Notes under the pieces: generated by a model | Told to the model about the DNA's origin: nothing | What the model saw: the letters and a program-made list of their open reading frames with translations, nothing else | Database searches by the model: none | Source: an uncultured cyanobacterium | GTDB taxonomy: Bacteria > Cyanobacteriota > Cyanobacteriia > Pseudanabaenales > Pseudanabaenaceae | Assembly: GCA_963703315.1 (NCBI GenBank) | Contig: OY969811.1 | Span: 2,656,001 to 2,720,000, forward strand | Length of the DNA: 64,000 nucleotides | Reading direction: 5' to 3' | Shown: positions 57,994 through 64,000 of the stretch, piece by piece | Position numbering within the stretch: position 1 is the stretch's first letter | How the letters are laid out: the number at the start of each line of letters is the position of its first letter | Position numbers and translations under genes: made by a program

Positions 57994-58029
57994 ACATCGT
58001 AGAAAAAGGGTCTTAGGGACGTGCAGTGA

Positions 58030-58092
58030 AATCAAGGAACCAGTTTTTTGTGGCGCGGCTACGCCGCGCCACAAAAAACTGGTTCCTTGATT
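58030..58092. repeat. Perfect 30-bp-arm REP-like hairpin
   Basis: AATCAAGGAACCAGTTTTTTGTGGCGCGGC-TAC-GCCGCGCCACAAAAAACTGGTTCCTTGATT. Confidence 0.88.
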
Positions 58093-58178
58093 AAGGATTT
58101 TCAAATTTTAGTTTTGGGATTAAGGTTAAAGTGGAGTCAAGCTCACACTTTACAACCTTAAAATCAATCTGCTCTGCT

Positions 58179-58781
58179 ATGTCCTACGATACTCCGCGCA
58201 TTGCCAAAGTCCACCGTAAAACTGGCGAAACCGATGTCACTGTGATGCTAAATCTTGATGGCACAGGTAAAGGCAATATCAATACAGGTATTCCTTTTCT
58301 CGATCATATGCTGCATCAGATTTGCTCTCATGGCTTAATCGATCTTGATGTCCAAGCCACAGGTGACTTGCATATCGATGACCACCACACCAACGAGGAT
58401 GTGGGAATTGTATTAGGACAAGCGCTCGGACAAGCATTAGGCGATCGCAAAGGGATTAACCGCTTTGGTCATTTTGTTGCACCTCTTGATGAGGCTTTGG
58501 TACAGGTTGCCCTTGATTTTTCTGGTCGTCCCTATTTAGTCTATGGATTAGTCATTCCCAATCAAAGGGTAGGAACTTACGATACAGAATTGGTGAAAGA
58601 GTTTTTCCAAGCTGTCGTCAATCATGCCCAGATGACTTTGCATATCAGGCTTTTAGAAAGCGGTAATTCTCACCACATTATTGAAGCAGGATTTAAAGCT
58701 TTTGCCCGCGCCATCAAGATGGCGATCGAAGTTGATCCACGCCGTGCCAGCGTGATTCCTAGCTCTAAAGGTGTTTTATAG
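58179..58781 (+). CDS. hisB: Imidazoleglycerol-phosphate dehydratase
   Basis: [35 protein letters not shown]. Confidence 0.96.
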
Positions 58782-58899
58782 ATAAAAATGGTGCAAAGCG
58801 CCATTTTTATCCATTTGGGAATGGTGTTTTATGTTAGTGTCAGGAATTATTCGTGTTTACGATGATCTTGATGTAGATACTGTCTTGAGTACCAAAAAG

Positions 58900-59886
58900 T
58901 CAAGAGGGAATTTGAACAAAATTTGGGTCGAAAGAACGCTGAGACTTGAGAACGCCAAAGACCTGTCGTAACAGCTTGTGCATGACAGCCCCAATGACAG
59001 ACATTTTGGACTTACCCTTAGCCGTAAGGCGAGCGCAGAAAGCAGCAATCGGCAAATTATAACGACGGGCAACAATCGCAGGCATAAACAAAGCTTTACG
59101 CAAACGCGAATTACCAATTTTAGATAAACGTGGCTTACCATGAATCGAAGAACCAGATGAGAACTCACGGGGAGTTAAACCCGCAAAAGCTGCCAGTTGA
59201 TCAGCAGTATCAAAGGCAGAAATATCCCGAATTTCCGCCAGTAATATAGTTGCGGTCAGTTCAGCAATACCAGGAATAGAAGTCAACAAATCCCGTTGAG
59301 ATTTCAAATGAGGGTGTTGATCAAAGTGCTGACGGATCAATTTTTTGGTCATCTCAATTTGCTCTTTGAGAAAATCAATGTGAGCATTAATTGCCTCAAC
59401 CAAAATTGGATCAGCCGTAGCAAGACGATTCTGCTCTTGCTGCTGCATAGCAGTTAAGCTATCTAAACGATGCACCAATGCTTGTAGTTGCTCAATTTCT
59501 AATGCTGGTGGTGTCCAAAGAGCAGGTTTTAAGGCTGCACAAAATCTAGCAATGACTTTAGCATCAGCACGGTCAGTCTTTGTACGACTTAACTCACTCT
59601 TGCCAAAGGCTTTGGGACGGGATGGATTAACAATACTTACTTTGTATCCTGCCTCTACTAAGAATCTAGCTAACCCATTGCCGTAAGTGCTGGTAGCTTC
59701 CATACAACTATGCAAGTTTGTCACATTTTGAAGGTTTAGCCATTCTTGTAATTCAGCAAATCCTTCAGGATTGTTGGCAAATACTTTGCTCTTGATTTTG
59801 GCGTTGCCTTGGATTAGAGCAACATCAAATTTGGCTTTGCTGATATCTATTCCTAAAACATCATATACTTCATTGTTATTGTTCAT
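58900..59886 (-). CDS. IS110 DEDD recombinase
   Basis: GIDISK, CMEATS, KTDRAD (DEDD), SIPGI, FSSGSS serine wedge, GNSRLRKAL; 328 aa. Confidence 0.95.
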   Translation of the reverse strand: MNNNNEVYDVLGIDISKAKFDVALIQGNAKIKSKVFANNPEGFAELQEWLNLQNVTNLHSCMEATSTYGNGLARFLVEAGYKVSIVNPSRPKAFGKSELSRTKTDRADAKVIARFCAALKPALWTPPALEIEQLQALVHRLDSLTAMQQQEQNRLATADPILVEAINAHIDFLKEQIEMTKKLIRQHFDQHPHLKSQRDLLTSIPGIAELTATILLAEIRDISAFDTADQLAAFAGLTPREFSSGSSIHGKPRLSKIGNSRLRKALFMPAIVARRYNLPIAAFCARLTAKGKSKMSVIGAVMHKLLRQVFGVLKSQRSFDPNFVQIPS

Positions 59887-59921
59887 TGGGGGGCAGTCCT
59901 CTTGCTAGATTTGTCCATCAA

Positions 59922-60125
59922 GCAATCAGTGGTATTGAACTATCCTTGTGAATGCAGGTTTACCCGTTGGGCGACCTCTGATACTGTCCAGTCTTTACTT
60001 GTTTCCACTGTTTAAGCAGAGACGACTCTATCTACAAAACGGGCTTGGTGTCCCTAGGGGCAGATCGAGTTTATCTCTGCTTTTGCTTTTTCGGATTGTA
60101 GTAAAGATTTTATCCTTTACTTTTC
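59922..60125 (-). ncRNA. Predicted bridge RNA, copy 1
   Basis: Reverse complement of the copy-2 RNA region with 1 SNP; transcript ends approximate. Confidence 0.75.
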
Positions 60126-60139
60126 CTCCTAGATACAAG

Positions 60140-60311
60140 GGGCAGAGCATTCCCACAGAAATTCATGGATTTTGAGATTGTTTTAATTTGGGAATGCTCT
60201 GCCCTAAACCCGCAACGCAGGGACAATTTATCGATGAAAGCGAAGAGGGTAGAGCATTTGCGTTTCGAGATGATGGATGAGTATCAAAATCTTGGCGCAA
60301 ATGCTCTACCC
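60140..60311. repeat. Two REP-like long-loop inverted repeats forming the IS110 target locus
   Basis: GGGCAGAGCATTCCC...GGGAATGCTCTGCCC (60140-60204) and GGGTAGAGCATTTGCG...CGCAAATGCTCTACCC (60247-60311). Confidence 0.85.
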
Positions 60312-60325
60312 CTTGTATCTAGGAG

Positions 60326-60530
60326 GAAAAGTAAAGGATAAAATCTTTACTACAATCCGAAAAAGCAAAAGCAGAGATAAACTCAATCTGCCCCTAGGGA
60401 CACCAAGCCCGTTTTGTAGATAGAGTCGTCTCTGCTTAAACAGTGGAAACAAGTAAAGACTGGACAGTATCAGAGGTCGCCCAACGGGTAAACCTGCATT
60501 CACAAGGATAGTTCAATACCACTGATTGCT
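60326..60530 (+). ncRNA. Predicted bridge RNA, copy 2
   Basis: 5' hairpin GTAAAGGA/TCTTTAC; stem AAGCAGAGA/TCTCTGCTT encloses TCTGCCCCT and TGTAG; stem CAGTGG/CCACTG encloses GACAGTATC and ACAAG; transcript ends approximate. Confidence 0.8.
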
Positions 60531-60563
60531 TGATGGACAAATCTAGCAAGAGGACTGCCCCCA

Positions 60564-61550
60564 ATGAACAATAACAATGAAGTATATGATGTTTTAGGAA
60601 TAGATATCAGCAAAGCCAAATTTGATGTTGCTCTAATCCAAGGCAACGCCAAAATCAAGAGCAAAGTATTTGCCAACAATCCTGAAGGATTTGCTGAATT
60701 ACAAGAATGGCTAAACCTTCAAAATGTGACAAACTTGCATAGTTGTATGGAAGCTACCAGCACTTACGGCAATGGGTTAGCTAGATTCTTAGTAGAGGCA
60801 GGATACAAAGTAAGTATTGTTAATCCATCCCGTCCCAAAGCCTTTGGCAAGAGTGAGTTAAGTCGTACAAAGACTGACCGTGCTGATGCTAAAGTCATTG
60901 CTAGATTTTGTGCAGCCTTAAAACCTGCTCTTTGGACACCACCAGCATTAGAAATTGAGCAACTACAAGCATTGGTGCATCGTTTAGATAGCTTAACTGC
61001 TATGCAGCAGCAAGAGCAGAATCGTCTTGCTACGGCTGATCCAATTTTGGTTGAGGCAATTAATGCTCACATTGATTTTCTCAAAGAGCAAATTGAGATG
61101 ACCAAAAAATTGATCCGTCAGCACTTTGATCAACACCCTCATTTGAAATCTCAACGGGATTTGTTGACTTCTATTCCTGGTATTGCTGAACTGACCGCAA
61201 CTATATTACTGGCGGAAATTCGGGATATTTCTGCCTTTGATACTGCTGATCAACTGGCAGCTTTTGCGGGTTTAACTCCCCGTGAGTTCTCATCTGGTTC
61301 TTCGATTCATGGTAAGCCACGTTTATCTAAAATTGGTAATTCGCGTTTGCGTAAAGCTTTGTTTATGCCTGCGATTGTTGCCCGTCGTTATAATTTGCCG
61401 ATTGCTGCTTTCTGCGCTCGCCTTACGGCTAAGGGTAAGTCCAAAATGTCTGTCATTGGGGCTGTCATGCACAAGCTGTTACGACAGGTCTTTGGCGTTC
61501 TCAAGTCTCAGCGTTCTTTCGACCCAAATTTTGTTCAAATTCCCTCTTGA
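60564..61550 (+). CDS. IS110 DEDD recombinase
   Basis: Protein identical to copy 1. Confidence 0.95.
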   Translation: MNNNNEVYDVLGIDISKAKFDVALIQGNAKIKSKVFANNPEGFAELQEWLNLQNVTNLHSCMEATSTYGNGLARFLVEAGYKVSIVNPSRPKAFGKSELSRTKTDRADAKVIARFCAALKPALWTPPALEIEQLQALVHRLDSLTAMQQQEQNRLATADPILVEAINAHIDFLKEQIEMTKKLIRQHFDQHPHLKSQRDLLTSIPGIAELTATILLAEIRDISAFDTADQLAAFAGLTPREFSSGSSIHGKPRLSKIGNSRLRKALFMPAIVARRYNLPIAAFCARLTAKGKSKMSVIGAVMHKLLRQVFGVLKSQRSFDPNFVQIPS

Positions 61551-61632
61551 CTTTTTGGTACTCAAGACAGTATCTACAAGTTCGTTGTTGTAAATCGTTA
61601 AGAGTGCTTTGCGCCGCCTTTATTTCAGAATT

Positions 61633-64000
61633 TTAAGGAAAGAAATCCTTGAGAAAGAGAGATACTTCGGCGCGATCGCTAACATTAAAGAAGTCAAGGG
61701 GAACAACTCCATCCAAATGCCGACTGACGACACTAAAACCTTGTCTGGCGCGACGATAGTTGATGACTAGAGGACTATTAGCTGGTAAGGGCGATCGCCA
61801 CCAAGCATCAAAATTCGCAGCATTTGCCATGCGATCGCTCATTACCTTGACTGTTAAAGCAGCACGCTCATCAAGAAGATTACTGGTGGCAAAGACATAG
61901 GCGCGTTCTAATAACTTGTCTCGCAAGTTAGGATTTAACCAAGCGGAAATCACCATTTCTAGAGGAGTTTGGGGATTTTGCTTCACTGCTTGCAAGGCGT
62001 TAGTGTCATTGGCGATCGCCTTGGCAAGTAATATCGCTGTCGGATTTTTAGTTTGCTTGAGTTCAGCAATGGCATCAGGTTTACCAGTCCACCATCGCAA
62101 AATAGCAAGGTTCAGTGATTGATTGGAAGTCTTGCTATATATTTCCTCAAGCTTGGCAACTACCTGTGGATAAAGGGGTTGAAAAGTTGGTTCTGTCCAA
62201 ATGGGACTCGTAATAAAGATCGGATCATTAATTACCTCACGGGTCATCGCGGCGATCGCTTCAGGGGTTTTACCTTGACGCAATAAACTCACACCTAAAC
62301 CAAAATAGAGAGACCGCTTCAGAGGGACTAGTTCTAAACCACGACGGAAGTAGCTCTCAGCTTCTTGAGCAGCACTAGTTTCAGGCTGTCGAATACTTAG
62401 CCATGCGGCGGCATTATACACCGCCTCATTATTAGGATTTGTGGCGATCGCTTTTTTGATCCATGCTAAGCCATCTTTTTGCCATGCGGCGGACTGCGGT
62501 AAGTTGGGATAATTCAGGGCGAGATCCGCTAAGTTCCATCCTAATTGATAGGGATAGTAAGGCTCCCAAGGAGCTAGTTGATTAGCTAATTTGAGCCGAT
62601 CTTGAAACTTGTCAATGGAAGTGAGGGCTTCCGTGAGAGATTCCTGTTTATTGCGATCTTCCATCAAATTGCTTTTTGCCCTTGATAGATATAGGAATCC
62701 CACACTAGAGGCTTGCCAAGCGGTATTTACGGGAACTAGCCATGCGATCGCCGCGATTAAATAGACTGTGGCAACAATTGCTAACCAAAGGCGAGGCTGC
62801 TTTTGATAGCCCAAGGTAATCAATTGACGGGTATGGATTTGTCCGAGATAGGCAAGACTTGCGAAGATAATTACCAAGCCGCCGCTAATTGCAGGGACAT
62901 CAAGCTGATAGTCGGTAATTGCTAACAGACCATATCCCAGCAAACTACCGAATAAACCATAGGCGATCGCCTGATCCTGTGGATGCGTTTGCCAACTCTG
63001 AGATTTATGTAACTTGATAAATAAGGTAATGATCGCCATGAGCAAAAAGACAAAGGTAATCACTGCCCCGATTCCCAGTTCTGCCCAAAGATGCACGGGG
63101 GTGCTGTGCAACTGAAATAAAAGCTCCGCTTCACGTCCAGCCCATTGTGGACGATATTGCTGATAGAGCATCACGGCGGAACCTGCCCCTGCCCCAAAGA
63201 GCCAATGCTCCAAACCAATCCGCCAACCCGTATCTGCGGCGATCGCCCTGAATAATAGCTCTCCTGAGCCTTGAGCAGGATTAGCAAAACTTGTGAATAG
63301 TCCTGAAATCAGCGATCTCAACCGATTATTCGCCGCGATCAAAAATCCTAAAATGGCGATCGCCGCACTACTGCCCCAAAACACTAACCAGCGATTGCCA
63401 CGATTCCGTAACAGAGCGACAATGACTCCAAACAAAACAATGCCCCCTAGTCCCAGAAAGCCCCCCCGTGAACTGGTGGTATATAAATCGAGTAAACCTA
63501 AGCCGATCGCTGTCAGCCATAGTGATCGCCATATCCCCTGTTGAGCGATCGCTAAGCTAGCAAAAATTGGTAAAACCAACATCAAAAATCCTGCCACATA
63601 ATTTTGATGCCCCATCGGAGCCCAATTGCGGGATTGCAAATCGGAAAAGTCATAACTAAGATTCAGCCCCCATTGATTGAGCTTGGCAAAACTAGCTAAC
63701 TGGGGTAACCATGTTTGGGTCGTCCACAAAAATAAGCTTTCTAAAATTACAGCAAGTCCTAACAAGCCATGAAAACGCATGATTGGTAAGAGTGCCGATG
63801 TTTTTTCTACAGTTGGCTCCAGATATTCTCTAGTTTTGGGTTCTCTAGTCTGGGGTTCAACAACCTCCCTATGCAAAAAATTATTAGTTACATACAGCGC
63901 TATAAAATAACCGAATGCAGTTAGGGCATACCACATACCCTGATTGGGAAACCGTGAAAACATCGTCGATAAGCACAGCGTTACGAAGCCAGAGCCAATT
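61633..64000 (-). CDS. O-antigen ligase (Wzy_C)-family membrane protein with TPR-like C-terminus, 5'-truncated
   Basis: GHQNYVAG, TSSRGG, FGAGAG, QLHSTPVHLWAELG; frame stays open to the window edge. Confidence 0.8.
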   Translation of the reverse strand, partial: IGSGFVTLCLSTMFSRFPNQGMWYALTAFGYFIALYVTNNFLHREVVEPQTREPKTREYLEPTVEKTSALLPIMRFHGLLGLAVILESLFLWTTQTWLPQLASFAKLNQWGLNLSYDFSDLQSRNWAPMGHQNYVAGFLMLVLPIFASLAIAQQGIWRSLWLTAIGLGLLDLYTTSSRGGFLGLGGIVLFGVIVALLRNRGNRWLVFWGSSAAIAILGFLIAANNRLRSLISGLFTSFANPAQGSGELLFRAIAADTGWRIGLEHWLFGAGAGSAVMLYQQYRPQWAGREAELLFQLHSTPVHLWAELGIGAVITFVFLLMAIITLFIKLHKSQSWQTHPQDQAIAYGLFGSLLGYGLLAITDYQLDVPAISGGLVIIFASLAYLGQIHTRQLITLGYQKQPRLWLAIVATVYLIAAIAWLVPVNTAWQASSVGFLYLSRAKSNLMEDRNKQESLTEALTSIDKFQDRLKLANQLAPWEPYYPYQLGWNLADLALNYPNLPQSAAWQKDGLAWIKKAIATNPNNEAVYNAAAWLSIRQPETSAAQEAESYFRRGLELVPLKRSLYFGLGVSLLRQGKTPEAIAAMTREVINDPIFITSPIWTEPTFQPLYPQVVAKLEEIYSKTSNQSLNLAILRWWTGKPDAIAELKQTKNPTAILLAKAIANDTNALQAVKQNPQTPLEMVISAWLNPNLRDKLLERAYVFATSNLLDERAALTVKVMSDRMANAANFDAWWRSPLPANSPLVINYRRARQGFSVVSRHLDGVVPLDFFNVSDRAEVSLFLKDFFP

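Follow-up and report, generated by a model that had tools for sequence, protein, structure and literature searches.

The closest described relatives of the element reported here belong to the IS110 group of insertion sequences, of which IS621 of Escherichia coli encodes a recombinase together with a 177-nt bridge RNA (PMC11208160; PMC11208158). Durrant et al. (2024; PMC11208160) predicted thousands of bridge RNA orthologues, reported that 85.7% of the IS110-group elements listed in ISfinder have a bridge RNA, and described the second (donor) loop of the RNA as much more conserved than the first. The legend of Extended Data Fig. 7 of the same paper gives the IS621 target as ATCAGGCCTAC, which ends in CTAC. 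The catalytic residues of IS621 are named as D11, E60, D102, D105, and S241 in PMC11208158, where the donor positions are numbered dA6, dT7, dC8-dT9, dT10, and dT12. A second enterobacterial element, ISCro4, is reported to be 88% identical to IS621 (Perry et al., 10.1101/2025.05.14.653916) and is therefore its sister, and the IS1111 group is described as carrying its RNA in a long right end, with subterminal inverted repeats of 7 to 17 bp (PMC11208160). Among the papers that we searched, none deals with a bridge-RNA IS110 element in cyanobacteria.

At the end of the window, by which we mean the whole 64,000-nucleotide stretch of cyanobacterial DNA that was analysed, we found two inverted copies of an element consisting of a 250-nt non-coding left end, a 328-aa open reading frame (ORF), and a 23-nt right end, with a CT on both sides. 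We are highly confident that this is a canonical IS110-group insertion sequence of the IS621 type, the left end of which encodes a bridge RNA. The jumping gene is intact and probably recently active, and it is of the known IS110/IS621 kind. The IS110-group features present are the PF01548 domain, the PF02371 domain with an aligned serine, the CT core, and the long left and short right ends; the bridge RNA features present are the two-loop layout, the target and donor guides, guide covariation, the position-7 handshake, and, in silico, a promoter that exists only at the junction. The element pair is laid out as follows.

58877-60137, minus strand: IS110-group element copy 1, 1261 bp (left end 60137-59887, ORF 59886-58900, match to the bridge RNA model 59904-60106)
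60138-60313, no strand assigned: two-hairpin repeat unit of 176 bp between the two copies, both termini being occupied targets
60305-60311 and 60312-60313, plus strand: left target TCTACCC of copy 2 and its CT core, matching the guide at 6 of 7 positions, with a G:T wobble at the other
60314-61573, plus strand: IS110-group element copy 2, 1260 bp, its inverted arms 100% and 99% complementary to those of copy 1
60314-60563, plus strand: left end of copy 2 (250 nt), the predicted bridge RNA gene, beginning with the right donor TGTAT and scoring 234.6 bits in cmsearch
60564-61550, plus strand: recombinase gene, 328 aa (PF01548 at residues 11-156, PF02371 at residues 199-280; D14, E63, D105, D108, and S244)
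61547-61573, plus strand: -35-like TTGACT at 61547-61552 over the stop codon, and the right end (23 nt), its terminus being the left donor GACAGTAT
61574-61578, plus strand: right CT core of copy 2 and right target ACA

The whole genome contains seven copies of the element that are 99.84 to 100% identical, and the ORF was uninterrupted in all five copies scored by protein search. A covariance model search of the genome recovered the same seven RNA genes and no diverged ones. CT stands at both junctions in all seven copies, as it does in the elements of relatives. Copy 1 is flanked by TCTGCCC-CT and CT-ACA, and copy 2 by TCTACCC-CT and CT-ACA. Taking all seven together, the left flank is TCTGCCC-CT in five, TCTACCC-CT in one (copy 2, with one rG:dT wobble against the left-target guide), and TATTCCC-CT in one, and the right flank is CT-ACA in four and CT-ACG in three, starting with AC in every case. 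The element itself begins with TGTAT and ends with GACAGTAT. When the sequence was read back, every string named in a preliminary description of this DNA was found at the coordinates given there, with flanks and ends as claimed. That description had named copies at unrelated sites as evidence against its reading; all seven sit at TCTGCCC-like-CT-AC sites.

Among the small differences between copies, window position 60385, two nt away from the left-target guide on its 5′ side, is an A private to copy 2, with G in the other six copies and in all close relatives at that column, and the C-run ahead of the start codon is one C longer in copy 1 and in one other copy (1261 versus 1260 bp). HIP1-like octamers, GCGATCGC, are frequent in the genes flanking the pair (window 58000-64000), which fits a cyanobacterial genome. 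One flank holds what we take to be a hisB-like ORF (58131-58781), and the other an ORF of 776 aa (61633-63963, minus strand) that presumably encodes a membrane or TPR-like protein.

The target is the end of a dispersed repeat of about 178 bp. A BLAST search of the genome with the 176-bp unit that separates the two copies gave 46 rows, of which 20 (the unit itself included) span query positions 1-176, and these full-span rows are 71.5 to 90.4% identical to the unit. The local repeat proposed as the target in the preliminary description thus belongs to a dispersed family. Unoccupied TCTRCCCCTAC sites occur 14 times in the genome, all 14 on the 3′ side of a shared motif, (A/T)GCTCTRCCCCTAC; by composition, the 12-mer target TCTGCCCCTACA would be expected about 0.3 times. 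Both termini of the 176-bp unit carry the target, in opposite orientation, which accounts for the head-to-head arrangement of the pair in the window and of another at genome 3075045-3077746. The spacers of these two pairs are 78% identical and the outer flanks differ, and the insertions were therefore independent. As to the repeat family itself, the ~178-bp unit is built from a pair of hairpins, has GTAGGGGCAGAGC...GCTCTACCCCTAC as its inverted termini, and is MITE- or REP-like; further units lie at genome 3076306-3076484, 932461-932638, and elsewhere, and four of the seven element copies form the two head-to-head pairs on such units.

Within the left end of copy 2, the predicted bridge RNA is organized as follows, all on the plus strand.

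60330-60351: 5′ stem-loop, 7 bp with an 8-nt loop
60369-60437: target-binding loop module, with outer stem AAGCAGAGA (60369-60377) paired with TCTCTGCTT (60429-60437), inner stem ACUC (60381-60384) paired with GAGU (60423-60426), and inner hairpin GGG/CCC within 60397-60410
60387-60395: left target guide TCTGCCC plus core CT, together TCTGCCCCT
60415-60421: right target guide U-GUAG, pairing with CTAC-A/G (TGTAG at 60415-60419), then handshake bases AU (60420-60421), the A of which can pair with donor T7
60441-60524: donor-binding loop module (helices 4-7), with outer stem CAGTGG (60441-60446) paired with CCACTG (60519-60524), inner stem GACU (60458-60461) paired with AGUU (60510-60513), and inner hairpin 60474-60495 made of AGGU/ACCU plus CCC/GGG
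60463-60471: left donor guide GACAGTAT plus core C (reading GACAGTATC), equal to the right-end terminus at 61566-61574
60498-60508: right donor guide AU-(UC bulge)-ACAAG, pairing with CT-TGTAT, then handshake bases GA, the G of which can pair with target C7

The left-target guide and core match the flank at 9 of 9 positions in five of the seven copies. The left donor guide, ACAGTATC, matches the left donor and core at 8 of 9 positions, position 9 being A and not the core T. The right donor guide is discontiguous, with AU at 60498-60499 and ACAAG at 60502-60506 separated by a 2-nt bulge, and nine bases of RNA are thereby set against seven of DNA. As for the donor-loop handshake, its second base (A) fails to pair with target C6. 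From composition, 250 nt should contain TCTGCCCCT (a 9-mer) 2e-4 times and ACAGTATC 5e-3 times, and 0 of 200,000 shuffles gave the four guides in this order, in agreement with the earlier claim that all four guides match target and donor. That claim needs trimming at one point, where TGTAG was said to read CTACA: the pairing of GUAG with CTAC holds in all seven copies, but target position 12 is A in only four of them and G in three, and the right-target guide is essentially GUAG.

Folded as a single sequence, the left end (z = -3.13) formed the 5′ hairpin, the inner hairpins, and the 9-bp stem of the target loop; in the minimum-free-energy structure, AUCUGC from the left-target guide is paired to GUAGAU from the region of the right-target guide. 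The 5′ hairpin had been placed at 60331-60350; the hairpin stands, with its limits moved to 60330-60351 by the fold. When 62 nt of each of 15 left ends were folded to minimum free energy, a local hairpin near this position was seen in most, most clearly in the window element, L001-L003, L009, L011, L014, L016, and L032, and the folds differ in L027, L028, and L030. RNAalifold on a plain MAFFT alignment gave 15 pairs, in inner helices only, because the outer stems were misaligned. We drew a 33-pair structure on nine close sequences, built a covariance model from it, and realigned all matches (23 rows, 20 distinct). In this alignment, 93.5% of the cells were paired, compared with 74.4% in shuffles and 32 to 49% in slid-partner controls, and double (compensatory) changes were found in 28 of the 33 pairs, including 16 of 16 in the target-loop module (helices 1-3); the observed values were reached by 0 of 500 shuffles. 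These helix counts lean towards the proposed structure, since the alignment was fitted to it. Even so, the outer stems did not serve as anchors, and double changes as numerous as theirs are hard to obtain otherwise. The inner hairpin proposed for each loop was recovered by both the fold and the covariance-model alignment. Guides buried in consensus stems had been named as evidence against the bridge RNA: the covariance-model structure leaves all four guide segments inside internal loops, whereas the MAFFT consensus fold puts two pairs between the target-guide regions (columns 57-87 and 58-86), with one-sided variation and no compensatory changes. An Rfam search at E up to 1 matched no bridge RNA family and gave sub-threshold miRNA-like matches only, on the hairpins of the target repeat. 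A 65-aa minus-strand ORF (60306-60503) was ruled out as a gene, its frame not being conserved in relatives.

We collected 23 loci of relatives from public genomes, mainly of Pseudanabaena and other cyanobacteria, and a second search of 401 cyanobacterial genomes gave 10 with a match at E up to 1e-60. The 11 distinct left-target guides matched their cognate flanks at a mean of 6.1 of 7 positions, versus 2.45 of 7 for non-cognate flanks, and the cognate guide-flank sum was reached by 0 of 100,000 permutations. The guides and flanks are given below.

Window element: guide TCTGCCC, flank TCTGCCC
L001: guide GCAGCCC, flank GCAGCCA
L002/L014: guide TAAACCC, flank TAAACCC
L005-7: guide ATTGCCC, flank ATTGCCC or ATTACCC
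L009: guide ATTATGC, flank ATTATGC
L011: guide ACCGCGA, flank ACCGCGA
L027/28/30: guide CCCGCCC, flank CCCGCCC
L029: guide AAGCAAG, flank AAACAAG
L031: guide CGTGTCC, flank CGTGTCC
L032: guide ACGCATC, flank ACCCATC
L003: guide GAAACCC (the eleventh guide), matching its own flank at 1 of 7 positions

Besides L003, the exception is L016, a fragmentary copy with the L001 guide, which matches at 4 of 7. The right target starts with AC in all elements, and the right-target guide is always GUAG. The donor ACAGTAT-CT-TGTAT is kept in nearly all relatives, down to 50% protein identity among the cyanobacterial ones, and in E. coli IS621; the one variant, ACAGCAT in L029, appears in the right end and the left donor guide alike. 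The handshake base that follows ACAAG changes together with target position 7, the pairs being G-C in most elements, U-A in L011, and C-G in L029, which matches the handshake-guide concept and covariation described in PMC11208158. The base after GUAG is A in 20 of 20 rows that keep the region, the donor having T7; of the other three rows, two are the pieces of the split L008, and in L002 a deletion of its own cuts into the columns extracted. The second handshake position is not consistently paired across rows. With helices and guides covarying across relatives, the target-loop/donor-loop layout assigned to the left end at the outset is upheld.

Several of these loci have features of their own. 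In the Chamaesiphon copy at L008:761-1183, the bridge RNA gene is split into a target loop (761-881) and a donor loop (994-1183) by about 110 nt of foreign hairpin-forming sequence. A second, diverged bridge-RNA match (L006:449-648, minus strand, 60.8 bits) lies head-to-head upstream of the Chamaesiphon element there and carries the guide CCCGCCC, the same as that of the L027 group. At L028:850-1090, two empty CCCGCCC-CT-ACCAAACC sites in 112-bp tandem repeats lie directly upstream of the occupied site, and the right flank of the element carries the repeat on, so that a single locus naturally shows the site both empty and filled.

The 328-aa protein matched PF01548 (E = 8.5e-27; 94.3 bits against a cutoff of 29) and PF02371 (E = 1.4e-26) in Pfam. 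Its closest solved structures are those of ISCro4 (9t56; E = 3.5e-76, residues 9-321) and IS621 (8wt6; E = 7e-73), and both alignments are gap-free over about 312 residues. Five cyanobacterial relatives all keep D14, E63, D105, and D108, which together with S244 align to IS621 D11, E60, D102, D105, and S241 under an assumed tag offset of two residues, based on two extra N-terminal residues that the deposited chain 8wt6_A appears to carry. The intact DEDD-plus-serine enzyme of the preliminary description is thereby confirmed as a set of residues kept in alignment with those of IS621.

A promoter is formed in silico when the element ends meet. Right ends were joined to left ends in a script and scanned by sigma-70-like criteria in 12 elements: the joined form had a sigma-70-like promoter in 10 of the 12, and the integrated form had one at the same place in 0 of 12, the one match of L027 lying elsewhere in the flank. 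The two joined forms that failed, L006 and L007, both start with TGGAT. The junction promoter of the window element reads TTGACT (61547-61552), N18, and TAT-CT-T (TATCTT), and the promoter scan of the integrated locus in the window found none on the plus strand ahead of the left end and its RNA. This pattern fits the reconstituted promoter described for IS621 (PMC11208160), the bridge RNA of which is reported to be weakly expressed from the integrated element (PMC13626964). Contigs of an RNA library (X5) cover 60309-60484 and 60455-60615 of a relative, as assembled contigs from which neither strand nor start is readable, and the circle joint was absent from the contigs of 4 of 24 public runs, again assembled contigs with no readable ends. 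The junction promoters fall into two registers about 7 nt apart, with the -35 in the right end shifted to match: the -10 lies across the junction (TAT-CT-T) in the window element, L001, L003, and L032, and 4 nt inside the left end in L005, L027, L028, L029, L030, and L031. A 7-nt direct repeat, GTATCT-T-GTATCT, makes up the donor itself.

By analogy with IS621, from which we infer transcription, binding of the RNA by the protein, the circle, and recombination, the element would excise as a circle in which the joint of right end and left end creates the donor site GACAGTAT-CT-TGTAT. The same joint would create the sigma-70-like promoter, with its -35 TTGACT in the right end and its -10 TATCTT across the junction, from which an RNA of about 200 nt with the 5′ hairpin, the target-binding loop, and its donor-binding counterpart could be transcribed. 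In the donor loop, (G)ACAGUAUC and AU..ACAAG would pair with the joined ends of the element in the same way as the target loop pairs with the target, and a tetramer of the DEDD-plus-serine recombinase would exchange strands beside the CT cores. The element would thus be inserted without duplication at TCTGCCC-CT-AC sites, that is, at the termini of the ~178-bp dispersed repeat.

The guides could be real and yet insufficient, if target choice also needs DNA structure, namely, the hairpin arms of the ~178-bp repeat, in a dual match of sequence plus structure under which the guide alone would not retarget the element. Such logic has been reported for ISPpu10 (preprint 10.64898/2026.03.19.712850), and six of the seven insertions as well as all 14 empty perfect sites lie at ends of the hairpin-forming repeat. 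However, a concentration on the repeat is also expected from a 9+4-nt guide aimed at a repeated sequence, and IS621 was retargeted by guide swaps alone, as described in PMC11208160. Moreover, when the flanks are compared with one another, that of the copy at genome 3868926 neither has the GCTCT motif of the repeat nor looks like the other six, and its left target matches at 5 of 7 positions. We regard a structural requirement of this kind as unlikely.

The copies might instead be relics spread by duplication or homologous recombination of repeat units and not by recent RNA-guided transposition, a reading to which the shared layout of the two head-to-head pairs (window; genome 3075045-3077746) lends itself. 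It is very improbable, as the outer flanks differ among all seven copies, the spacers of the pairs are far less alike (78%) than the element copies (at least 99.84%), and all five scored ORFs are intact. It is scarcely credible that the left end has no role beyond that of a 5′ leader or a regulatory stretch in the transposase mRNA, or that it codes for the 65-aa minus-strand ORF, the matches to flanks and ends being by-products of site-specific insertion. The left end does lie directly upstream of the recombinase ORF, with a hairpin (60526-60552) that abuts a Shine-Dalgarno-like AAGAGGA, and the minus-strand ORF is present. Against this, the guides change with the targets in 11 lineages, the helices stay paired through double changes, the order of the four guides was not reproduced by shuffling, and the minus-strand frame is closed in relatives, its longest open stretch being 35 to 47 aa in L005, L009, and L011. 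The IS621-type element with a bridge RNA in its left end is the reading we carry forward.

Because the donor is shared across the clade, the bridge RNA of one element could send a co-resident relative's circle to the target that it reads itself, so that elements in the same genome would share target specificity in trans; we put this forward tentatively, as a possibility that is rather doubtful. The L003 element (= L025; 1100-1200), with an enzyme 92% identical in amino acids to that of the window and the guide GAAACCC, sits at ...GGTTGAAACCGCGA-CT. This L003/L025 site, ACCGCGA-CT, is the exact 9-nt guide of the co-resident L011 element (= L035; 1090-1200), and both elements have the same donor. 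This insertion, a single case, may have been directed in trans by the bridge RNA of the neighbor.

What the element offers is a clean, new case of a known system, with no new mechanism. With its seven near-identical copies, 14 empty targets, and relatives with different guides, it would be a clean case from nature of transposition guided by a bridge RNA in a cyanobacterium, and the small independent set of relatives reproduces the guide-target and handshake covariation reported for IS621. The native pair of enzyme and RNA might be tried for cyanobacterial genome engineering. The preliminary description had presented the element as a candidate programmable tool; the label is true but overstates its significance, as it applies to many orthologues, given the thousands of such RNAs predicted in PMC11208160. 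The known mechanism is left unchanged by this element, which adds an example to an established system.

Compared with IS621, the recombinase has the same two Pfam domains and aligned D-E-D-D-S residues. The core is likewise CT and the RNA is encoded in the left end. As described for IS621, the RNA has a 5′ stem-loop, a target loop, and a donor loop, each loop made of a stem, a 5′ guide, an inner stem-loop, and a 3′ guide, with the bottom strand read by the 5′ guides and the top strand by the 3′ guides. The right donor guide is likewise discontiguous, with a 2-nt bulge and 9-on-7 pairing, and a handshake base follows each 3′ guide. The 14-bp donor, ACAGTAT-CT-TGTAT, is identical. This identity had been put forward in the preliminary description, and it is borne out by the donor DNA oligonucleotide in the methods of PMC13396178, which contains ACAGTATCTTGTAT, as well as by the donor numbering in PMC11208158; it is unsurprising because the donor loop is the conserved one (PMC11208160). 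Both targets end in CTAC, and each element has a palindromic dispersed repeat as its destination (REP in the case of IS621).

The two elements differ in other respects. The proteins are only distantly related (the gap-free 312-residue alignment at E = 7e-73), and a blastn search with the element DNA at a distant setting found nothing among 20,395 E. coli records. TCTGCCC is the left target here and ATCAGGC that of IS621, and the modules are longer here (target loop of 69 versus 65 nt; donor loop of 84 versus 68 nt). The -10 spans the junction here, whereas it lies wholly in the left end in IS621. The host of the present element is a cyanobacterium. In the IS1111 group with its seekRNA (Siddiquee et al. 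2024; PMC11187229), a DEDD transposase and RNA-guided target choice are likewise described; unlike in that group, the right end here is only 23 nt long and the RNA model matches in the left end. ISCro4 (IS622) of Citrobacter rodentium is the best solved-structure match (PDB 9t56) and belongs to the same family with the same bridge RNA scheme, and the enzyme in the window is an outlying relative of both ISCro4 and IS621.
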